A DNA stretch of 64,000 bases, taken from NCBI GenBank assembly GCA_020632665.1, contig JACKFC010000008.1, positions 71,557 through 135,556 of the forward strand, given 5' to 3'. The stretch comes from Deltaproteobacteria bacterium (lineage in GTDB: Bacteria > Myxococcota_A > UBA9042). The notes under the pieces were generated by a model. It worked only from the letters and a program-made list of their open reading frames with translations, did no database searches and was not told the DNA's origin. The translations under genes were made by a program, and so were the position numbers. Shown here one piece after another: positions 12,241 through 23,300 of this stretch (the first letter of the stretch is position 1; each line of letters starts with the position of its first letter).

Positions 12241-12351
12241 GCGAACTCCTGAAGCTGAGTGGGGTCGCCGACCGCTGCGGCGAGGGCGCGGAAGCTAGCG
12301 TGCGGGGCATCTGGTCGCAAGGTGGTGCAGATGCGGCGCGCGGTTGTGTCG

Positions 12352-12480
12352 ACCCCTCTCTGGCCCGCTGGGCCATCTCTCCCCGCTTAGCGGGGAGAGA
12401 GAAGCGTCTTCGATCCGCAGAGCTGTGCCGGCTTTCCCGTTCTCTCCCTGTTGGAGAGATGCCCGTAGGGCAGAGAGGGT
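12352..12480. repeat. Inverted pair of REP-like hairpin elements
   Basis: 12352-12400 ACCCCTCTCTGGCCC..GGGCCATCTCTCCCCGCTTAGCGGGGAGAGA versus reverse complement of 12441-12480 ACCCTCTCTGCCC..GGGCATCTCTCCAACAGGGAGAGA; perfect 11-bp stem at 12376-12400. Confidence 0.7.
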
Positions 12481-12549
12481 TTTACGGTACGGGAATACGG
12501 CGTGAGTCGGCGAAGGAGCGGTGATTGGCCGGATGCGCCGGGTCCATGC

Positions 12550-13119
12550 TCATTGGCAGATCTTCACCGAAAGGTGCCGATCGGGGGCATCGATCCACTC
12601 GTCTTCGGGCGCGACGAGGTCCTCGCCGCCCTGCCACTCGACGACGACCTCGATATCGTCCTTGCCGAACCTGCACCTGCCGGTCTCGGGGTCGAGATCG
12701 CAGGGGGTCGCGATGACGGTCAGCCGTCCGCGATCCCGGCAGATTCCATCCTTGAATTTTATGAGTGTCCCGGAGTGACGCCAAGCCTTGGGGTCCCACT
12801 CAGGGTAGTTGACGTAATCGCTGCGGCAGCTCATGTCAGAGCGGAAACTCCATGCTTTAGAAAGAACTCTCTTGGCCTCTGTCAAACTCTGTCCCGGGAG
12901 CGGCTCTTCGAAAATCTCGACTTCGTATCGTAGGTCAGCGATATCTCCTGGCAGATCATATGTGCTCGGACATCCACCGCAAATCTCCGCTGTCACAGTG
13001 AGATCGAGCCAGCATATTTCCGTTGGTTTCGCGTAACAGCCTTGCGCGCCTGAGACGAGGATCACGCTCGCCACTGCCAAATGCGCGGCTGCGCTACGCC
13101 ATCGTCGCGCGCTACTCAT
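12550..13119 (-). CDS. Hypothetical Cys-rich exported protein or lipoprotein (189 aa)
   Basis: Basic N-terminus plus hydrophobic stretch ending AQGC; start overlaps stop of upstream gene (ATGAGTAG); GGAGG upstream. Confidence 0.7.
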   Translation of the reverse strand: MSSARRWRSAAAHLAVASVILVSGAQGCYAKPTEICWLDLTVTAEICGGCPSTYDLPGDIADLRYEVEIFEEPLPGQSLTEAKRVLSKAWSFRSDMSCRSDYVNYPEWDPKAWRHSGTLIKFKDGICRDRGRLTVIATPCDLDPETGRCRFGKDDIEVVVEWQGGEDLVAPEDEWIDAPDRHLSVKICQ

Positions 13120-16100
13120 CGAGGCCGCCTCCCTCCGGCAAGGTGCTCATCCAGTGCGCTTTCGGCTTCGGCGGTGGCTCGGGCAGCTTCAATCCGACTG
13201 TCGACCCAGCATCCCGCGACACGCCGCCACCAACGACTTCGGTATCGTCCACCGCAGTGGGATCGGCGACGAACACGGTCTTGGTAGAAACCCTCGCGTA
13301 GCGCTCCTGCCAGCCCGCGCTCTTCGTGCTCTGGATCGGCAGTAGCAGCTCATGCAAGGGCCCCGGCCACGTTGCGGAGGAGGGTAGAGTGTATGCTGCG
13401 GTCAGTCTCTTACCGAGCAAGTCCAACCACGGTCCGAATTCTCCCCACTTGGCTGCGACGCTGGGGTCGAGCAACTCTGCCTGTGCACGGCGCACAAGAG
13501 CGAGCAGGTCACCGTAGGCGCTCACGTCCGCCGTCGTCGAAAACCATAGCAAGAGAGGCTCGGCCTGCGCTTCATCCAGGTACTGAGCAAGCTCTGAATC
13601 GCTAAGCTTCTTCCACGAACTCAACGCCTTGATGAGAGCACTCGACTCCTGCTCCGCGCGCAGCGTCGCGACGGGTGGGGACCCTCCACTCCCGGGAAGC
13701 AACTCCTTGGTCCATGCAACCTCACCGTCGGGAGGGAAGCCCGGCCACGTTGGCGCGGCGGCCATCGCAACCCGCAACGGCATCGTAGCAGGACCAGACG
13801 CTGCTCCGCGCCATGGAGGTTGCGCGATCTCCGAGGCCGCGCCGGTCCAAGAGCCGGGGATACCGCCAACTGCTGGGCCGTGGACCTCGGCGCGAATCGA
13901 TGCGAGCGCTTCGAGCCGGCGGGTTGTCACATGCACGCCGCCGGCCACGGCCTGCGACGTGACCGACACCACACCAGAAACCGGCTCGTGGACGAAATCC
14001 GAATCCGCCGACGCGTTCACCCCAACAATGACACTGCCGGCTGGTGCCGCCTTGGGCCACTTCGCCGGGGGAAGGGCGAGTTCGATCGAGAGGGCGTTGC
14101 CATCGATCGCGCGGAAGCGGGCGACGACAGGATCCAGCTCCGGCGAGACGCGTGCAACCGCTTGCAAGGAAGCCGCGATTTGCTCGTTGAGGCGTTCGGC
14201 GAGTTTCTTGGCCTCATCCTTGAGATCTTCCTCGACGAAATCGAGCACAGAGTAGCTATGTAAGTCCAGAGGAAAAGGCGCGTTCGGGCGGACACGTACG
14301 TCGGTAAAGACCACGGTAGCAAACTCGGGAGGCTTTTCGCCGTCCAACGGTCCCAGCGCCGGCTTCAACTCCGCGCATAGCGACACCTCCATCAACCCTT
14401 CGCCAGACAGCCCATCTCCAACTGGAAGCAAGACCAACTTGATGTTGATTTGGGCGCCGTCCAACCCCAGGTTCTGGACGGTCACCGCGTAGGCCCCATC
14501 TTGCACTGCCTCGCGCAGCGCGCCTTCGGATGCGAACGCATCCCGAAGCTGGCCCAGTGCTTTGGCGACTCCTGCCGCAGCGAGGATTGTGAGCGGCGGC
14601 ACCGCCAGTGCCAGTGCAATAACAACTACCAAACCGAGGGAAACACCAACGAAGAGCGCGATCGCAACCAACTCCTTCGCCGGGATATCGAGTTTAGCGA
14701 ACCACTCGCTCGCGGCGAACGTCACGTTGACGGCGAGCCACTCGAATGGGCTGTCTGCGAGCTTCTTCAAGGTCTTGTGAACGCGTTGCAGACCAGACTC
14801 TGCAGCAACCGGTTCACACACACAGTCCTTGTCGCCACCAGTCTTCTCTTCGGAAACCCCGGCCGCGGGCACTTCGGCCATGTTGCGCGGAAATTCCCAA
14901 ATCATCGTCTGCTCGATGATCGCGGCGAGATAGAAGCGACCGATGTCGACGACCAGCCCCTCCGCCATCGCCTCCGCTCCAACGGCCGGGCCACCCATGA
15001 TGGGGTCCAACTGCACGTTGTCCTGGCTCAGGCGGGCCAAGAATTCCTCCAGTTCAGCTTCGACCTCCGCTTGTCGCTCGCGCTCTGCGACGGCGCTGGC
15101 CGCGCCAAGGATGGCTTGTGCCGCTTGCGCGTTGACGCCTGGTGCCAACGTGGCGAGCGCTGTGGGATTGGCAAGCCAGCTCTGGAGTTGTGCGACGTAG
15201 GCTCCGAGTGTGGACGTTTGTGGATCTAGGGACTGCGCCCCGGTCAGCGTCTGCGCAACGGACGTCCCACCGTCGAAGACGTAGGAGAAGCCCCACCACC
15301 CAGCATCTCCTGCTGCGGTCGTCAGCCTGGAATTGCCCGTCGGAAACACCCTGAGCAACGTTCGAGCTTGGTCGTCGCTAATCCCGAGATCCGCGACGCC
15401 GAGTTCATCGACGCTCATGCCCTTGAAGCTCGGACCGATGCCTTGGAAGGCGTCGAATGCAGCGTGCCGCGTCAAACCGACCGCACGCAGCATCCCACCG
15501 GCGTTGCGGGCGGCGAAACTCTCCAGCAACGAGACGACGCCATACGCCGCAGGCAACCCCGCGGCCCGGCTGGCGAGAGCGCGCAGCGCCACCGTTCCCT
15601 CTTCCCAATCCGAAGCGGGCACGCCGCTCGGAGGTGCGGTTACCCAGCCTTCTGCGTCGGAAGCCTCTGCTTTCGCAGACGGCGTACCTCCTTGGTGGAA
15701 CAGATCGACGGCCAGTTGGCTGGTCCAAACCGACCGACAGAACGATCGCCACGTCACGGCGGGGCCGAGTTCGACGCTCCCCGGACCCACTTGGTCGATC
15801 TTGCCGATGGTGTTGGCTTTGAGTCCGCCCGTTACCTCATGCACGCCGTCCATCCCGAGCCCGATGTCAAGCACCAGCCCGCTCGGAATGAACTCATCGC
15901 TGCCAACGCTCATAAGTGCGCCCTGCGGGGACGTGATCCATGCATCGCTGGCCAACGTTTGCGCGGCGTCGAGCAAGGGTATGGATGCAAGCAAGTTCAG
16001 CATCACTTCGAGCCCCAGCGGCGCAACGGTTGCCGCTTGGAATCGAGAGCTTGCCAAAACCCTGTCTGCTCGCCAACGGGAATCGATCAACCCAGAAGCA

Positions 16101-16405
16101 GCCCACGCACGATGGCACAGCAGCTCCGAACCCTTAATCTGGAACGAGAGATCCAACGGCAAGAGCTGGAAGGTTGAGTCCCCCGGTGTCGGCAGCAGAT
16201 CGCTCGTCGGATCTGCAAGCAGCGGAGCCGCTCCAGCGAACAGCAACTGGACTACGACGCTCGGCACGCCCTGCTTGCTGAGAAGATCACTCGCGGTCGG
16301 ATCGCTCTGGGCAAGGGCGCGGGCAAGTGAGGCGAGTCCGGCCGGAGACCACCGAACCCGCAGGTCGAACCGCCGCACCATGCCGGCTTCGCCGATGAGG
16401 ATCAT
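13112..16405 (-). CDS. Hypothetical 1097-aa protein with central hydrophobic segment
   Basis: 3.3-kb open frame in lower-GC DNA; ATGA overlap with upstream ORF; no recognisable family motif. Confidence 0.8.
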   Translation of the reverse strand: MILIGEAGMVRRFDLRVRWSPAGLASLARALAQSDPTASDLLSKQGVPSVVVQLLFAGAAPLLADPTSDLLPTPGDSTFQLLPLDLSFQIKGSELLCHRAWAASGLIDSRWRADRVLASSRFQAATVAPLGLEVMLNLLASIPLLDAAQTLASDAWITSPQGALMSVGSDEFIPSGLVLDIGLGMDGVHEVTGGLKANTIGKIDQVGPGSVELGPAVTWRSFCRSVWTSQLAVDLFHQGGTPSAKAEASDAEGWVTAPPSGVPASDWEEGTVALRALASRAAGLPAAYGVVSLLESFAARNAGGMLRAVGLTRHAAFDAFQGIGPSFKGMSVDELGVADLGISDDQARTLLRVFPTGNSRLTTAAGDAGWWGFSYVFDGGTSVAQTLTGAQSLDPQTSTLGAYVAQLQSWLANPTALATLAPGVNAQAAQAILGAASAVAERERQAEVEAELEEFLARLSQDNVQLDPIMGGPAVGAEAMAEGLVVDIGRFYLAAIIEQTMIWEFPRNMAEVPAAGVSEEKTGGDKDCVCEPVAAESGLQRVHKTLKKLADSPFEWLAVNVTFAASEWFAKLDIPAKELVAIALFVGVSLGLVVVIALALAVPPLTILAAAGVAKALGQLRDAFASEGALREAVQDGAYAVTVQNLGLDGAQINIKLVLLPVGDGLSGEGLMEVSLCAELKPALGPLDGEKPPEFATVVFTDVRVRPNAPFPLDLHSYSVLDFVEEDLKDEAKKLAERLNEQIAASLQAVARVSPELDPVVARFRAIDGNALSIELALPPAKWPKAAPAGSVIVGVNASADSDFVHEPVSGVVSVTSQAVAGGVHVTTRRLEALASIRAEVHGPAVGGIPGSWTGAASEIAQPPWRGAASGPATMPLRVAMAAAPTWPGFPPDGEVAWTKELLPGSGGSPPVATLRAEQESSALIKALSSWKKLSDSELAQYLDEAQAEPLLLWFSTTADVSAYGDLLALVRRAQAELLDPSVAAKWGEFGPWLDLLGKRLTAAYTLPSSATWPGPLHELLLPIQSTKSAGWQERYARVSTKTVFVADPTAVDDTEVVGGGVSRDAGSTVGLKLPEPPPKPKAHWMSTLPEGGGLDE

Positions 16406-16707
16406 CGTGGTCCGTCGCGCCTGGGATGGGGACGACTCCTACCGTCCCACCCAACCAGCATCTTCCCGATTTGTGCAGCCCAACGATCGGGCTTCGCCCC
16501 ATCGCCGCTGATTCGTACTCCCAGCGAGGCGGGCCCAGGCGAATCTGCATGCACCCTGGCGCTATCCGTGCGGGAAGTTGGAGAGACTGAAGTCATCGGC
16601 GCTCGAGCGCTAAGAACCGACCCGAGCGAAGCAGCATCGGCCCGAACGATCTCCACTTCGGGGCTGCCGATGATGACCTGACCATCACGCCGCGGTTCCG
16701 CGCTCAT
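16402..16707 (-). CDS. Hypothetical protein (101 aa)
   Basis: ATG at 16707 overlaps the TGA of the upstream gene; its TGA (16404-16402) overlaps the ATG of the 1097-aa gene. Confidence 0.6.
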   Translation of the reverse strand: MSAEPRRDGQVIIGSPEVEIVRADAASLGSVLSARAPMTSVSPTSRTDSARVHADSPGPASLGVRISGDGAKPDRWAAQIGKMLVGWDGRSRPHPRRDGPR

Positions 16708-17207
16708 CGACGCACCGTAGCAATCCGGGGCTGCGCTTGGCGGGGAAATGAAACGACGGGTCGGCCAGCGAGGCGTTCGTACCGAGCTAACGCTACCCAC
16801 GCACGGATTTGCACCATCGCGGCATCGCCCCCCGCACTCGCAGCATTGGTCAGGGTTAAGCGACCAACGCCGCCGGCATCCAGATTCGTCGCATCTTCAC
16901 GGCCCAAGACGATCTGCGCCACTGTCACCACATCGCGCGGCAGATCGATGAGGCTGCCAAGGGCAGAGCCGAACCGATCGTCACCGGGACCGTTGATGTT
17001 CGTGCGCTCGATGTCCAAGGAAACTTCGGGTGGATTGGTCGCGTGAAGGCCGAGCACCCGCGCTTGCACGGTGATCAACGCCTGATTGTAGGCGTCGAAG
17101 TTGATGTAGTTCTCCGGCGGGCATGCCCACCAGTTGGCGTAGGCGCTGTCTGACGCATCATCCAGCGTAACCGTTACGTCCAGCCAGAGTTTGGGTGTAT
17201 TTGACAT
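16704..17207 (-). CDS. Hypothetical protein, paralog 3 of tandem trio (167 aa)
   Basis: ATG at 17207 preceded by GGAGGAG; shares motifs with the two upstream ORFs. Confidence 0.8.
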   Translation of the reverse strand: MSNTPKLWLDVTVTLDDASDSAYANWWACPPENYINFDAYNQALITVQARVLGLHATNPPEVSLDIERTNINGPGDDRFGSALGSLIDLPRDVVTVAQIVLGREDATNLDAGGVGRLTLTNAASAGGDAAMVQIRAWVALARYERLAGRPVVSFPRQAQPRIATVRR

Positions 17208-17221
17208 ATGCTCCTCCATCG

Positions 17222-17668
17222 CTAGCCTCGCACCAATGCAACCGAGCAGCGCAGCCACACGACAGCCCATTCCGTTGCCGCGCCGGCGTTTTGCGCGATC
17301 AGCCGGCCGATGCCGCGGGGCAACTTGCGGATCGTACCGGCGGCCCCTGACATGTTTTGGTCCAAGCCGTAGCTGGCAGAAACGACGCCGGCGCCAGCCG
17401 CCGTTCCGGATGGCAAGAGCCAGGACGTCGTTGCGGTTGGCTCCATCGACTCGAACGCCGCTTCGAGCTCGACGCGGGCGGCGGACCGCTGCATGCCGAC
17501 TCTGACCGAAGCTGCGCCCGGCCCGGCCAAGCTGTATTCGAGCGTCAGGTAGGCTTGGTCGGCTTCCCCGAAGTCGAGAAAGTCATGCGGGGCCATCGTC
17601 CAGACGTCCACTGCAGTATTCGAAGCTCCAACGAATACAAGGCCTTCGTACCAGACAAATGACTTCAT
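17222..17668 (-). CDS. Hypothetical protein, paralog 2 of tandem trio (148 aa)
   Basis: RBS AGGAGTGAGG before ATG; shared motifs with both neighbours. Confidence 0.8.
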   Translation of the reverse strand: MKSFVWYEGLVFVGASNTAVDVWTMAPHDFLDFGEADQAYLTLEYSLAGPGAASVRVGMQRSAARVELEAAFESMEPTATTSWLLPSGTAAGAGVVSASYGLDQNMSGAAGTIRKLPRGIGRLIAQNAGAATEWAVVWLRCSVALVRG

Positions 17669-17693
17669 GACCTCACTCCTGTCGAGGCGATTC

Positions 17694-18128
17694 CTAGTTG
17701 GTGATCACGTGCGCCCGCACTCGGATCGCAGCCCACTCACCAGCGCTAAAGCTCGCGGCACTGAGTTCCGTGCGCAAGCGCCCCAGCGGAAAACTCCATC
17801 CGTCCACGCCGAGCCCACCGCCGCTGCCCAGAACAAGGCCCTCGACGCTTTGACCACGCGTCAACGTCATCGATCCAGATCCACCCGTGGTGACGATGTC
17901 GGCCCAGAGGTCTTCGTCGGCAGAGGGAGCTGCTGTGCGCTGCACTTTCAAGCTCGTCTTGGTCGCGCCCGGTCCGACACCAGTGACCTCGAACTCGAGC
18001 GTCGCCGACTCCACTTCGTCGAATGCCAGCCAATGGCTCGGCGGCAGGGTCCACGAAGTTGCTGCTCCCTCGTAGAAGAAGACCCAGAGATCATGCCACA
18101 GCCGGCGCTGTGCTCGACGCGTAGTCAT
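17694..18128 (-). CDS. Hypothetical protein, paralog 1 of tandem trio (144 aa)
   Basis: RBS GAGGAGG before ATG; shared motifs with the downstream ORFs. Confidence 0.8.
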   Translation of the reverse strand: MTTRRAQRRLWHDLWVFFYEGAATSWTLPPSHWLAFDEVESATLEFEVTGVGPGATKTSLKVQRTAAPSADEDLWADIVTTGGSGSMTLTRGQSVEGLVLGSGGGLGVDGWSFPLGRLRTELSAASFSAGEWAAIRVRAHVITN

Positions 18129-18169
18129 GTCACCTCCTCGGCACTCAACGTTTAGTAGGTGGCAGTGAA

Positions 18170-18235
18170 GCAGATTCTACCCCCCCCGTCAACAACAATA
18201 TTTCATTTTATAATCATGTTGTTATGCAGTAAGCT
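18170..18235. promoter_or_regulatory. AT-rich upstream region of the island operon with 7-bp inverted repeat
   Basis: AACAACA (18191-18197) / TGTTGTT (18217-18223) flanking a 19-bp very AT-rich spacer; -10-like TAAAAT and TAGAAT on the minus strand. Confidence 0.5.
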
Positions 18236-18359
18236 GGGGGCGTCTGGCGAAAAAGGGAGAGATGCATCGCACCGCCCTTCGACGGAGATATCGAGAACCC
18301 ACGGCTCGCGGCCGACACCGAACTCTCAACGCATCTTTGGCAAGCCCGCTCGCTCTAGG

Positions 18360-20334
18360 CTCGACTTTAGCGGTTTTCCAGGCGGCGACCAGCCAAGGCC
18401 CTTGTGTACGGTCGGCATCGCGGCGCCGCGACGCGGACAGCGATCAACGGTGATGCTCGGGTTCGACGCCTTGCGTCGAAGCAGAGCTGTTGGGCGCCCG
18501 AGTTCGCGAGGGCGACTTGCTGCAGATCCCGACCGCTGCAGTGCGAGCTAGGGTCGTCAGCAGGCAGGCACACATCTTGAGGAGATCGTTACGTCTTGCG
18601 GGCCGCCGTCGACGGCCACGGCCGTCGACGGCGGCCGTCACCGTTGCGGCAGTGGGTTGTTTCCTGCCCGCACGACTCGGTGTTGCTGAACATGGTCGCG
18701 GGCTCAGATCGACGGCCAAAGAACTTGGAGAGGCACGGGGAAGCCCCCAAGATCGGGTTGCTAACATCGTCACCAAGGAGTTCCCCGTGCCCGACGTCCT
18801 TCTTACCGCGTCGTTCGTCGCTTTGCTATCGCAACTGCGCCCTGTCTTCACTGCGCCTTCGTTCGCCAACTTCGTCGTGCTGCTCGCCGGCATGGTCCAC
18901 GCGCTCGGCGCGCATAGGCTTACCGACGCGCTACGCGCGGCCGGTCCTGCTGCCGAGCGACACTTCACGAGCTACTATCGGTTCTTGTCGCACGCGCAGT
19001 GGTCGCTCGACGAGTTGGGCCTGGCCCTGCTCGCGTTGATCGAACAAGTGTTGTCGTTGCCGGAACTCGAGCTGATCGTCGATGACACGCTCTGCCGCCG
19101 CAGCGGCAAGAAGGTCGCGCTAGCAACGATGCACGCCGACCCTCTGCTCAAGCAAGGCGGTCGGCCTTTCCATAGCTACGGCCACGTGTTCGTCGTGCTT
19201 GCGGTTCATGTGCGGCTACCTTTGCTGGCGCCGACAGGGTGGGCGCTGCCCGTCATGTTCCGGCTGTTCGAAGGGCCGCGCCAAGGCGGGCGCAAAGACG
19301 CAGCGTCCGATGCGCGGCGTCGCAAGCTGCGCCGCGACAAGGACCTGCCCACGCGCAACCGCGTTCGCAAGACCGACCGCAAAGTCGTCGATGGTAGGGT
19401 CGAGCAATGCGCTCCCGAGCCCGATAGCGGACCGTTGCCCAAGGAGTTGCACCGCACCAAGACCCAGCTCGCCGCTGAGTTGATCCTCGCGGTCGCGCGT
19501 CGATTTCCACACTTGCGCATCCGAGTTCTGGCCGACCATCTCTACAACTGCAACGCAGTGCTGAACGAGGTGCTTCGCGAAGTCGACAACGTCAACTTCG
19601 TCACCCGCGGTCGCCCCGATGCGGCGCTGTTCGCCATGCCAGAGCCGCGCAAGCCCGGCCAACGCGGCCGACCCGCCATCAAAGGCGAGCAGCTGCCCAA
19701 CCCCAAACAGTGGGCCGACGAGCACGCCGACGACTTCGAACGGCACGTCGTGCCCATGTACGGACGCGACGTCACGGTCAGGGTGGCAAGCTACCTCGGT
19801 ATGGCCTACCGCTCGCTACCGGGGCGGTTGGTCCGCTACGTCATCGTCATCGACCCAGCCGGCATCTACCGAACCGACTACCTACTATGCACAGACCTGG
19901 AGCTATCGGTCGCAGAAGTCGTCGCCGCCTACAGCCGCCGCTGGCCGCTCGAGCAAACCTTCGAGTGCTGCAAGCAGAAGCTCGGGATGCAGGATACACA
20001 GGTCCAGATGCCGGCAGCGGTCCGACGCCACGCGCCGCTGTCGATGCTGCTCTACAGCCTCGTCGTGCTCTGGTACCTGCAGCACGGCCACCAACTCACC
20101 AACTACGCCCGGCTACCAGCCGACCCATGGTACAAGGGCAACCCGCGGCCGAGCTTCACCAACATGCTCGCGTGCTTACGGCGAGCGAGCTGGGGCGAAG
20201 CATTTGTGGATCCACCGTTGCCCGGCACGGGAGCGACTGAAAATCAGCCGCCGACGACCCGCGATCGGCGGCCGCAACTCGCCCGCTACCTGTCGCGGGT
20301 CGTCGCCGCGGGTTGAAGATGCGCTAAAGTCGAG
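18360..20334 (+). mobile_element. Insertion sequence, IS701-like, 1975 bp
   Basis: Perfect 13-bp terminal inverted repeats CTCGACTTTAGCG (18360-18372) / CGCTAAAGTCGAG (20322-20334); direct repeats TCTAGG at 18354-18359 and 20335-20340. Confidence 0.92.
18787..20316 (+). CDS. DDE transposase (IS701-like)
   Basis: GTG start after AAGGAG; DDE-type motifs LIVDDTL, VLADHLY, YSRRWPLEQTFECCKQKLG. Confidence 0.88.
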   Translation: MPDVLLTASFVALLSQLRPVFTAPSFANFVVLLAGMVHALGAHRLTDALRAAGPAAERHFTSYYRFLSHAQWSLDELGLALLALIEQVLSLPELELIVDDTLCRRSGKKVALATMHADPLLKQGGRPFHSYGHVFVVLAVHVRLPLLAPTGWALPVMFRLFEGPRQGGRKDAASDARRRKLRRDKDLPTRNRVRKTDRKVVDGRVEQCAPEPDSGPLPKELHRTKTQLAAELILAVARRFPHLRIRVLADHLYNCNAVLNEVLREVDNVNFVTRGRPDAALFAMPEPRKPGQRGRPAIKGEQLPNPKQWADEHADDFERHVVPMYGRDVTVRVASYLGMAYRSLPGRLVRYVIVIDPAGIYRTDYLLCTDLELSVAEVVAAYSRRWPLEQTFECCKQKLGMQDTQVQMPAAVRRHAPLSMLLYSLVVLWYLQHGHQLTNYARLPADPWYKGNPRPSFTNMLACLRRASWGEAFVDPPLPGTGATENQPPTTRDRRPQLARYLSRVVAAG

Positions 20335-20335
20335 T

Positions 20336-23300
20336 CTAGGGCGCCGAACCAAGCACCGTCTCGAAGCTCTTCACCGGCGAGCTGCCGTGCCCCAACCCGA
20401 GCCGGGAAGCCGTGTTCAGCCCACAGCAGCGGACCTCGCCGGTCTGGAGCACGATGCAGGTCGTATTCACTCCCATCGCGACCTGCTCGACCTTGTCGAC
20501 GCCCGTCACCTTCATCGGCACCGTCGAGTCGAAGGTGTCGCCGGTCCCCATCTGGCCGTTGGAGTTCTGCCCCCAGCAGCGCAACGTATGGTCCTGCAGC
20601 ACAGCGCAGGTGGTGTGCATCGCCGCGTCGACCTGCGCCACCTTGCTGATATCGTAGACCGCGACCGGGCTGCCCGCGTTCTTCTTGCTGCCGTCGCCGA
20701 GTTGGCCGTAGCCGTTGTAGCCCCAGCATTTCAGGTCGCCGGCCTTGTCGACGGCGCAGCAATGCGCATGACCGCAGGTGAGGTCGACCGTGTCGACCAG
20801 CCCCGCGACGAGCTGCGGCTTGATCTCGGTCACGTTGCTCTCGCTGCCCTGCCCCAACGTCGCGGCGGAATTGTTGCCCCAGCACGCCACCTTGCCGTCG
20901 ACCAGCCGGACGCAGGTGGCGTATTCGCCGACGGCGACCTGGGCGACCTTGCCCGGCATGTCGGCAACCAGCGTCGGCTCGACCACGTTGCTGCTGCCGG
21001 CTTGGCCGAGGGCGCTGTAAGTGTTGCGGCCCCAGCAGCGCACCGCGCCTTCGGTGTCGACCGCGCAGTTGCGGCTGTGGTGGACGTCGATCGACGCGGT
21101 ATTGGGTGCCTTGAGCACGAATTCCGGCACGAAATAGAGCCCCGAACTGGTGCCGAGGCCAATCTGGCCATTGCTGTTGTAGCCCCAGCACCAGGTCTTG
21201 CCGCTGGTGTCGAAGCCACAGCCGTGGTTGCCACCCACCCGTGCGTCGACCATATCCTTGATCTTCTGGGCGGTTTGCAGGGTTCCGGGCGGGTTGACAC
21301 TGCCGTTGACGCCGCAACCACCGTTGCCGCACGCGCCCCAGGCGTGGACCAGGCCGGATGTTCCGACCGCCAAGCCATTGGTATCGCCCATGCTCACACG
21401 CACGGCGAAGCGCTTGGCGCAGACCCCGGCGATGCAGGCCTTCTCGTCGCCGCACGGGGTCAGGTCGGCCAGCGCCGGGTAGACACAGCCCGCCTTGCCG
21501 TCGCAGGTGTTGGCCGTGCACGGGTTGTTGTCGTCGCAGGTGGTCTTCGGACCGGCCTTGCAGGTGCCGCCGACGCACGAGTCGCCGGTCGTGCAGGCGT
21601 CGCCGTCCTCGCAGGCCGAGGTATTGTCGATATGGGTGCAGCCGAGCTTGCCGTCGCAGCCGTCGTTGGTGCACGGGTTGCCGTCGTCGCAGGCGCCGGC
21701 GCTCTTGCCGAAGCAGATGCCGGCGCTGTCGCAGGTGTCGTGGCCGTAGGGGTCGAAGCGCCAGACCGCAACCTTGGGCGCACCGACGCCGCCGTTGCCG
21801 TCGCCGACGCCGAGCAGCGCGGGCCCATCGACGACCAGATCGATCAGCGATTCGTAGCCAGCGCCGCTGCGCTGCTGCTTCCACAGCGTCAGACCGGTCG
21901 CGTCGACCGCGATCGCCGAGAGGTCGCCGCCCAGGCTCCCGGGCGTCCCGCCCGCGAGGACCCAACCCTTGCCGTGCGGCAAGATCCGCCACGGCCGCAG
22001 CGCCTCGCTCTTGTGCACCTGCCAGAGCTCCTTGCCCGCCGCATCGAGCCGGACCAACGAGAGCAGCGGCGCCCCGCCCTCCATCCGCGTCCCGGCAGCC
22101 AACGCACCACCATCGGGGGTCGCCGCAGCGACGCGCAGCTCACGGGCCACGGCTTGGCCGACCACCAACTCGCCGAGCCAGGTCGCGGTGACGGCCTTGT
22201 TGCCGTCGAAGAAGGTCGCGGCGAAGCGGCTGCTGTTGGCCGTCGTGGTCCAGCCGCGACCGACCAGGATCGCGCCGCCCTTCGCCAACGCGGCGACGCC
22301 GTAGCCGGACCGCACCGTGCCGCCGTCATAGGCCTGCCAGCCGAGTGAGCCATTCGCCGCGATGCGGAAGAGCGCGCCGTTGTTGCCCTGGCTGCCTGCC
22401 GCGTAGACGCCGCCGACGCCGTCGGACGCGGCGTCGTTGATCCAGGTCGCCGGCGGCGAGAGCGGGCCCGGGTCGACCAGCTTCGACTTGCCGTCGGCCG
22501 AGAGCACCACGTGCCGCAGCACCCGAGCGTTGCCAATCTGCGCATGACCCGTGAGCGTGATCGTGCTGCCAGCCGAGATGTAGCGGATGAAGCCATTCGC
22601 CAGCCCGGAGAGCGCGACCTGCGGCCAGCCCGGCGCGACCGCGCCAGTCTTGGTCAGCCGCCAGACGACCCACTCCTGGCTGCCATCGCCCGCGACCCGC
22701 ACGCCGGCAACCATCGCGCCGTCGGCGATCGGCGTCACCACGTGACCCCACGTCGCCTTGTCGCCTTCGCCGAACTCGGTGTGAAAGAGCGTGTCGGCTC
22801 CGCCGCCGACGCAAGCCCCGCTCTTGCACTTCGCGCCGACCTTGCACGCCGCGCCGTCGGCGCACTCCGAGCCGTCGGGCGCCGCGACCAGCACGCAGGT
22901 AAACGTCACAGCGCCCGTGCTGACGCATTTCGGCACGTCGCAGGCTCCGCCTTCTTTATCGCACTTCGGCGCCGGCCCAGCGACGCAGGCGCCGTCTTGG
23001 CAGGTATCACCGACCGTGCAGGCGTCGTCGTCGGCGTTGCAGCTCTTGCCGACGTAGCTCGACTTATCCGCCACGCAGGTGCCGGTCTTGGCGTCGCAGA
23101 CGTCGAGCGTGCAGGCGTTGCCGTCGTCGCAGCCCTTCGTCGTGTGGCTGCAGCCGGTCTTGGGGTCGCAGGCGTCGAGCGTGCAGGCCTTGCCGTCGTC
23201 GCAGTCGAGCGCGCTGCCCTTGCAGGCGCCGCCGGCGCAGGCGTCGCTGCTGGTGCAGACCGTGCCGTCGTCACAGACGGTGCCGTCCTTGACGGGCTGC

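Follow-up and report, generated by a model that had tools for sequence, protein, structure and literature searches.

An operon of six genes

We analyzed a 64,000-nucleotide (nt) stretch of contig JACKFC010000008.1 (forward-strand positions 71,557 to 135,556; here called the window) from the Deltaproteobacteria bacterium assembly GCA_020632665.1, a member of the Myxococcota. Our subject is P0001, a protein of 1,097 amino acids (aa) that a first-pass annotation, made from the DNA letters alone, had picked out as an orphan with a central hydrophobic hairpin. P0001 is encoded by gene 5 (13112..16405, ATG start) of a six-gene operon that lies entirely on the minus strand. Genes 1 to 3 encode three jelly-roll paralogues (the trio). 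Gene 1 (17694..18128) encodes 144 aa and has a GAGGAGG Shine-Dalgarno sequence before its ATG, and gene 2 (17222..17668) encodes the 148-aa protein whose structure we modeled with AlphaFold2 (AF2). Gene 3 (16704..17207) encodes 167 aa from its true start, the internal ATG at position 17207, which is preceded by GGAGGAG; its counterparts are called at 166 to 167 aa on the related contigs L004, L006, and L007 (described below).

Gene 4 (16402..16707) is a 101-aa open reading frame (ORF) with ATGA overlaps at both ends and is the first gene, a variable one, of what we call the cassette. L006 has a called ORF of equal size, with a ratio of nonsynonymous to synonymous substitution rates (dN/dS) of 0.30, and the 112-aa ORF in the same position in L007 is unrelated to it. 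As its codon-position G+C content is atypical, we rate gene 4 as only a probable gene. Gene 6 (12550..13119), whose start overlaps the stop of gene 5, encodes a 189-aa secreted protein, probably a lipoprotein, with eight cysteines in the mature part. Its N terminus (...AVASVILVSGAQGC) resembles a signal or lipoprotein sequence (...VILVSGAQGC), no further hydrophobic segment follows, and no homologue was found in Pfam, NCBIfam, or a homologue search. One alignment hinted that gene 6 might be a fourth jelly-roll paralogue; this was dropped when the jelly-roll profile gave no signal against it. The other five genes of the operon have no signal peptide.

Genes 3 and 4 and genes 4 and 5 overlap by ATGA and genes 5 and 6 by 8 nt, which points to translational coupling within the operon. 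The dN/dS values of genes 1 to 4 relative to L006 are 0.19 to 0.30. Upstream, an AT-rich tract with the ribosome-binding site of the operon can be read from the sequence (18129..18260, minus strand). This tract may hold the promoter as well; a scan with the sigma-70 consensus did not flag one there. PADLOC gave no match for any of the six proteins.

At the ∼70% G+C of the window, long spurious frames are common, and the coding status of P0001 was tested for this reason. The G+C contents of its codon positions 1, 2, and 3 are 0.68, 0.51, and 0.72, a pattern kept in every 100-codon block, and the longest frames on the opposite strand do not exceed 392 aa. A copy on L006, a contig from another metagenome (Logan ERR14790958) that carries the same operon, is 91% identical and is cut by the contig end at 1,066 aa. 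This relative was reached via the neighboring genes and not via P0001 itself. The two copies differ by ∼9% in nucleotides with a dN/dS of 0.28, and the 3.3-kb frame is open in both strains. Given the coding G+C pattern, the shorter opposite-strand frames, and the dN/dS value, P0001 is a genuine gene under purifying selection.

Similarity searches with P0001 gave no match in Pfam (hmmscan, E values up to 0.1), NCBIfam, PHROGs, or PADLOC, in a word-indexed search of 5.8 billion proteins, or in 60 related genomes, viral contigs, plasmids, and phages; phmmer against PDB sequences returned noise (E ≥ 0.23). An exhaustive phmmer search over 1.84 billion representatives had a sole match, a 146-aa fragment from the same strain on a 535-bp contig (L003, from ERZ28655102) whose DNA is identical to that of the window except for one base. 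At this base (L003:15-20), close to the contig end, T replaces C, and a CAG codon becomes an in-frame TAG; this explains why a 146-aa "protein" is on record, and the change may be an error of the assembly or of the reads. Protein libraries seem to lack contig-truncated genes, and the orphan status of a 3.3-kb gene is therefore partly a sampling effect. Thus, the description of P0001 as a 1,097-aa orphan holds for its length and very nearly for its isolation, with the reservation that the 91% identical copy and the same-strain fragment exist. The absence of a signal peptide, also proposed in the first-pass annotation, is borne out by the N terminus (MILIGEAGMVRRFDLRVRWSPAG...), which has no signal-peptide-like hydrophobic core. 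P0001 contains no HExxH, Walker A, or GDSGG-type serine protease motif, and no internal repeats were found in it. GxSxG matches once, at aa 587, within the predicted membrane helix treated below, and this match is missing from the L006 homologue.

An exchangeable cassette behind the jelly-roll genes

P0001 appears to be a strain-level accessory protein, the payload of a three-gene cassette made up of a small ORF, a large protein, and a Cys-rich lipoprotein. The large protein and the lipoprotein swap as a cassette with sharp breakpoints. When the window is compared with GCA_038135435.1 (L007) and GCA_964586155.1 (L004), nucleotide homology extends only over positions 18104 to 16774, i.e., over the trio. 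The trio proteins are 65, 72, and 64% identical, gene 4 is 20% identical, and the large proteins that follow in L007 and L004 (P0018/P0019 and P0020) resemble P0001 neither by BLASTP nor by profile comparison. Beyond the trio, tblastx produced only off-frame, Arg-rich compositional matches, which were discarded. The remainder of the L004 payload gene was not found elsewhere in the L004 genome.

We note that the L009/L004 record (CAZPHC010000001.1, GCA_964586155.1) carries the title "uncultured Enterobacteriaceae bacterium." The record and G012 represent one and the same genome, and as G012 falls in the Myxococcota-like family of the window, the Enterobacteriaceae label is probably wrong.

The same replacement is seen at a second locus of the window's own genome (L031, G000:C8:54174-55517) when it is set against its orthologue in the same-genus genome G001 (L032, G001:C140). 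The two trios share 79.5% nucleotide identity. Behind them, L031 has a 1.97-kb cassette with a 422-aa protein (weak trypsin-like match, E = 9e-4) and a 205-aa lipoprotein, and L032 has an unrelated 2.70-kb cassette with a 108-aa ORF, a 643-aa protein, and a 149-aa lipoprotein. After the cassette, homology returns at 84%. At both comparisons, a conserved module is thus followed by a nonhomologous payload with sharp breakpoints.

Six loci (the window, L031, L032, L007, L036, and L038) share the order of one or more jelly-roll genes, a large signal-less protein, and a lipoprotein or secreted protein that is mostly Cys rich, and in all six, this last, co-varying gene lies directly downstream of the payload. 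The signal or lipoprotein sequences of the cassette-end proteins read SGAQGC in the window, ASICGC in L031, LLSGC in L032, TTQPGC in L007, FALTAC in L036, and LLATC in L038. Some of these proteins are large (588 aa with 38 Cys in L036 and 295 aa with 24 Cys in L038). A further locus, L037, has no large protein; here, the gene for a Cys-rich secreted protein comes immediately after the jelly-roll gene. No mutual similarity was detected among the cassette-end lipoproteins, apart from a weak BLASTP match between L032 and L037 (E = 0.004).

The large proteins in the slot fall into unrelated families. At L036 (G000:C13:58526-58966), a single jelly-roll gene is followed by paralogues of 768 and 889 aa and then by the 588-aa lipoprotein. 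These paralogues belong to a family of 768- to 911-aa proteins (L036:2998-5304, L036:6194-8863, L038:2249-4756, and L038:5631-8366) that are 33 to 44% identical, share many invariant Trp residues, and always adjoin a jelly-roll gene and a Cys-rich lipoprotein. The family has no Pfam or PDB match, and comparison of P0001 with its 768-, 835-, and 889-aa members gave no profile-profile signal. In genome G006, two jelly-roll genes are immediately followed by the gene for a 709-aa protein (L034:11257-13386, contig G006:C142). This protein combines a rhodanese domain (2.8e-17) with one strong transmembrane (TM) helix (VGVVIAIIIIIAY) and a C-terminal tail rich in disulfide-type Cys, and it looks like a bitopic protein with the N terminus inside and the C terminus outside (N-in/C-out). 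The 643-aa and 422-aa payloads of L032 and L031 are without a TM helix, and membrane anchoring is therefore not general to the slot.

Genes 1 to 3 are paralogous by BLASTP (gene 1 versus gene 2, 4e-9; gene 3 versus gene 1, 3e-7). The AF2 model of gene 2, based on a 30-sequence alignment, is an eight-strand jelly roll with a mean predicted local distance difference test score (pLDDT) of 91.6 and a predicted template modeling score (pTM) of 0.85. Foldseek searches with this model returned generic jelly-roll matches only, both in the PDB (best E = 3.4e-3; best query TM-score, 0.52) and in BFVD (best E = 2.9e-4; TM-score ≤0.57). Matches included the capsid proteins of picornaviruses and nodaviruses, the Eph ligand-binding domain, and GOLD, MAM, and phage tail domains. 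In the PDB list, the insecticidal protein Cry11Ba stood at rank 44 (E = 0.017; TM-score, 0.36), and PirA was not in the top 50. The jelly-roll profile gave no profile-profile signal against P0001. With a profile of the trio, relatives were detected in a few metagenome contigs and metagenome-assembled genomes (MAGs). Of 401 genomes sampled from the phylum, the profile matched 7, each of them a member of the window's own Myxococcota family. Jelly-roll genes mostly occur in tandem sets; two more loci are present in the window's genome.

The operon belongs to an accessory island of ∼8 kb (12304..20336) that is missing in the sister species. The flanks of the island (the window up to 12303 and from 20337) lie only 70 bp apart on contig G001:C270 of the same-genus genome G001, which identifies the interval as an ∼8-kb insertion. 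They comprise a fadB-like gene on one side and the 3' end of a gene for a 1,692-aa protein on the other. The third-position G+C content of the six operon genes is 0.60 to 0.75 versus 0.87 to 0.94 in the flanking genes. The island also includes an IS701-family insertion sequence (IS) element (18351..20343, plus strand; transposase match, 1.6e-91) with 37-nt imperfect inverted repeats. The element sits between the upstream region of the operon and the 1,692-aa gene, exactly at the TAG stop of the latter, and has CTAG-containing duplicated ends. L006 represents the same locus in a sister strain with an empty IS701 site; its upstream gene is 94% identical to the C terminus of the 1,692-aa protein.

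Two perfect G+C-rich palindromes lie 3' of gene 6 inside the island, TCTCTCCCCGC-TTA-GCGGGGAGAGA (12376-12400) and TCTCTCC-CTGTT-GGAGAGA (12441-12459). Neither has a T-tract, and they could be terminators or repeat elements. Elsewhere, the window encodes a homologue of a myxosortase-dependent metalloprotease (MXAN_2677/2678 family; 6.5e-42, which is below the model cutoff) and a TIGR02266-type domain; the 1,692-aa gene itself encodes a giant Cys-rich/RCC1-like protein. The genome to which the window belongs (G000) is a 4.8-Mb MAG that is 67% complete.

Hydrophobic segment and topology of P0001

P0001 has a single hydrophobic stretch, made up of 36 uncharged residues (aa 579 to 614) between Glu578 and Lys615. 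It reads LVAIALFVGVSLGLVVVIALALA-VPP-LTILAAAGVA, and the segment quoted in the first-pass annotation (ELVAIALFVG...AKALG) begins at aa 578, corresponds to window positions 14552-14674, and contains the Kyte-Doolittle maximum of the protein (2.95 over 19 aa). The annotation had read this segment as a hydrophobic hairpin of about 40 residues, long enough for two membrane helices. We scored the protein on a Hessa-type apparent free-energy scale, with approximate per-residue values after Hessa et al. 2005. By this scale and by Kyte-Doolittle hydropathy, aa 579 to 601 (LVAIALFVGVSLGLVVVIALALA; 14603..14671, minus strand) form a membrane-competent helix of about −3.8 kcal/mol over 23 aa, and clearly negative windows start only at aa 579 to 585. 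The following part (aa 602 to 618; 14552..14602, minus strand) consists of a Val-Pro-Pro break, a hydrophobic extension of 10 to 12 residues (LTILAAAGVA), and an amphipathic charged stretch. The 19-aa windows that start after Pro603 score +9 to +12, and a scan of the whole protein found no other window below +1.5.

P0001 thus carries a single TM-competent segment and lacks a cleavable signal peptide. Since aa 579 to 601 alone are TM competent and only 10 to 12 hydrophobic residues follow the break, one span with a short, possibly interfacial extension is likelier than a two-helix hairpin. A short-armed re-entrant hairpin would be compatible with the same residues. The length on which the hairpin was proposed is real, in that 36 uncharged residues are present, and it is the second helix that these scores do not favor. 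As to topology, P0001 is at present more likely to be an ordinary bitopic membrane protein.

The surroundings of the segment were also compared with the earlier description. The motif assigned to a helical or coiled region (ERERQAEVEAELEEFL) is present at aa 441 to 456 and the CVC motif at aa 528 to 530, and both are conserved in the L006 homologue. A single-sequence AF2 model of P0001 has a mean pLDDT of 37.6 and a pTM of 0.26, too low for assessing burial or for fold comparison. Its low-confidence trace places helices at about aa 426 to 635 and strands at aa 639 to 707, in agreement with the proposed helical and beta-rich flanks; this trace is the sole support for that part of the description and is of low value.

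In the L006 homologue, the hydrophobic stretch reads LVAIALFVGVAWALVGAVALSL-K-VSILVILVAAAV-RN, and the equivalent of aa 579 to 601 also scores negative. Hydrophobicity is therefore retained in a place where the two proteins share only 64 to 68% identity. The segment opens a divergence hotspot (aa 576 to 700; 14306..14680, minus strand) that takes in the TM segment and the region after it. Here, 16 to 20 of 25 residues per block are identical, versus 22 to 25 in nearly all other blocks and 20 to 21 in a few. The synonymous rate (dS) is 0.36 to 0.53 in the hotspot versus 0.03 to 0.26 in most of the gene, and the nonsynonymous rate (dN) is raised too (dN/dS, 0.28 to 0.45). This pattern speaks less for simple positive selection than for a mosaic or recombined tract, possibly one imported by recombination from a more distant allele.

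Possible functions and comparison with known systems

Our leading reading, to which we give a probability of about 0.42, is that P0001 is a variable payload anchored in the membrane and paired with a lipoprotein, probably in conflict of an effector/immunity-like kind. The cassette would be cotranscribed and translationally coupled behind the conserved trio of cytoplasmic jelly-roll proteins. The span at aa 579 to 601 would anchor P0001 in the inner membrane, leaving ∼575 N-terminal residues in the cytoplasm beside the signal-less jelly-roll proteins and ∼480 C-terminal residues in the periplasm, where the co-varying gene 6 lipoprotein could bind them. The N-in/C-out placement is proposed because P0001 has a single TM-competent helix and because the 709-aa protein in the same slot looks bitopic. 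Payload and cognate lipoprotein may then form an effector/immunity module, serving antagonism or kin recognition, with the active or recognition surface outside the cytoplasm. A module of this kind fits best because of the logic of a payload with a cognate partner and the island-like distribution.

Several findings weigh against this assignment. The searches of Pfam, NCBIfam, PHROGs, and PADLOC revealed no toxin domain in P0001, and neither a known immunity family nor a known delivery machine turned up. As immunity proteins, Cys-rich lipoproteins that reach 588 aa would be unusual, two payloads in the same slot lack a TM helix, and the AF2 model of P0001 is unusable. The charges that flank the P0001 helix do not favor N-in/C-out, and in the L006 homologue, the C-terminal side is slightly more positive. 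We also considered P0001 as an effector of a type VI secretion system (T6SS). The sheath protein TssC/VipB (PF05943) was absent from all 14 searched genomes of the window's family, of which 12 are at least 90% complete (G000 is 67% complete) and for which an Escherichia coli positive control matched; a T6SS effector was rejected on these grounds.

The best-surviving alternative, though we hold it to be clearly less probable, is that P0001 is a bitopic scaffold without any antagonistic role, linking a cytoplasmic jelly-roll heterocomplex to the Cys-rich lipoprotein in the periplasm or outer membrane, for example, in adhesion, surface display, or signaling. Variation of the cassettes would then be surface diversity and not a set of toxin/immunity pairs. 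The one TM helix of P0001 fits such a linker, as does the 709-aa rhodanese/TM/Cys-rich protein, and within each cassette, only the last gene has a signal peptide. The genome encodes an abundance of Cys-rich extracellular proteins (e.g., the neighboring 1,692-aa protein), and the lipoproteins can be large (295 to 588 aa with 24 to 38 Cys). However, TM-less payloads occur in the same slot, and a strain-specific island distribution with wholesale cassette replacement is more typical of conflict systems.

Somewhat less probable still is the function put forward in the first-pass annotation, a soluble pore-forming or translocating toxin. The 36-residue stretch would be a hairpin buried in a helical bundle (aa ∼426 to 635) that inserts into a target membrane after release, with the jelly-roll proteins serving to bind or carry it and the lipoprotein conferring immunity in the periplasm. 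The uncharged stretches of colicin-type hairpins span a length range that includes 36 residues, in the low-confidence AF2 trace, roughly seven helices surround the stretch, interrupted at Pro-Pro, and a swappable cassette with a cognate lipoprotein suits the toxin/immunity logic of polymorphic loci. The jelly-roll partners recall Cry domain III and PirA, with the qualification that Cry11Ba appears only at rank 44 (E = 0.017). However, the break is off-center (23 + 2 + 11 residues), and the second arm, with only 10 to 12 hydrophobic residues, scores about +11 as a membrane helix. P0001 matches no toxin family, Colicin, Endotoxin_N, Cry, and ClyA included, and we see no obvious secretion route for it (the 14 family genomes lack TssC). 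The model at a pLDDT of 37.6 is too poor to use, and the 709-aa protein of the same slot looks clearly bitopic.

A broader claim would be that the trio and cassette make up a system not described before, by which Myxococcota that lack a T6SS antagonize others or recognize kin. P0001 would then be the first of a new class of toxins that insert into membranes, the trio would carry or deliver it, and the lipoprotein would confer periplasmic immunity. As a whole, this chain of assignments seems doubtful, slightly more so than the pore-forming toxin.

We regard a role in antiphage defense as improbable. In such a system, the trio would act as the sensor, and P0001 and the other variable downstream proteins would be interchangeable abortive infection effectors. 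An island beside an IS element, the patchy distribution, swappable effectors, and the one payload with a weak trypsin-like match (E = 9e-4) agree with this. PADLOC matched none of the six proteins, however, and every cassette carries a secreted Cys-rich lipoprotein with no obvious place in intracellular defense. A nonfunctional or decaying ORF on a recently acquired island, as might be suspected from the lack of P0001 homologues beyond one strain and from the adjoining IS element, is very improbable given a 3.3-kb frame that is open in two strains ∼9% apart in nucleotides (dN/dS, 0.28), a coding G+C pattern that holds throughout, and conserved gene overlaps.

If the payload and lipoprotein are indeed an effector/immunity module, they would represent a new way for T6SS-less, myxobacterium-like predators to carry and exchange large membrane-active proteins, and they would add several families without known relatives (the jelly-roll trio, P0001, the 768- to 911-aa family, and the Cys-rich lipoproteins). 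Even on the most mundane reading, the locus is a clean natural case of cassette swapping behind a conserved module of three paralogues. P0001 is also an example of a flagged orphan that is better understood through its neighbors than through its own sequence.

In topology, P0001 resembles bitopic inner membrane proteins with a cytoplasmic N-terminal and a periplasmic C-terminal domain, such as PknB-type kinases and anti-sigma factors: a single TM helix in its middle is flanked by large domains, and a signal peptide is lacking. Unlike in those proteins, no domain is recognizable on either side, and the gene belongs to a swappable cassette and not to a conserved regulatory locus. With colicin-type (PF01024) and other alpha-helical pore formers, it shares a long uncharged stretch (36 aa) in an otherwise hydrophilic, signal-less protein. 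In contrast to Colicin (PF01024), to which P0001 has no sequence match, the stretch is central and not C-terminal, and its arms are asymmetric (23 + Pro-Pro + 11) with one TM-competent helix. Colicin immunity is furthermore conferred by an integral membrane protein, whereas the downstream gene 6 here encodes a secreted lipoprotein. PirA/PirB and the three-domain Cry toxins likewise place small, stand-alone jelly-roll subunits beside a larger protein with a possibly helical, membrane-active part; P0001 differs in having no Endotoxin_N match in Pfam or NCBIfam and in being accompanied by three jelly-roll paralogues and not one subunit.

The closest likeness is to polymorphic toxin/immunity cassettes, such as the myxobacterial SitA/SitI cassettes, which are transferred by outer membrane exchange (PMC5562445, PMC8546572), and T6SS effectors with periplasmic lipoprotein immunity. 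The window cassette departs from these in having no recognizable toxin or immunity domain, and unlike for T6SS effectors, no T6SS sheath gene was found in the 14 searched genomes of the window's family. In SitA/SitI, the toxin itself is a lipoprotein and the immunity protein is cytoplasmic, whereas P0001 is without signal or lipobox and the downstream gene product is the lipoprotein. The conserved module consists of three separate jelly-roll genes and not of the N-terminal domain of a toxin. What the locus shares with polymorphic toxin/immunity cassettes is its organization: a conserved module, an exchangeable payload, a co-varying small gene downstream, sharp recombination breakpoints, and a strain-specific, island-like distribution.

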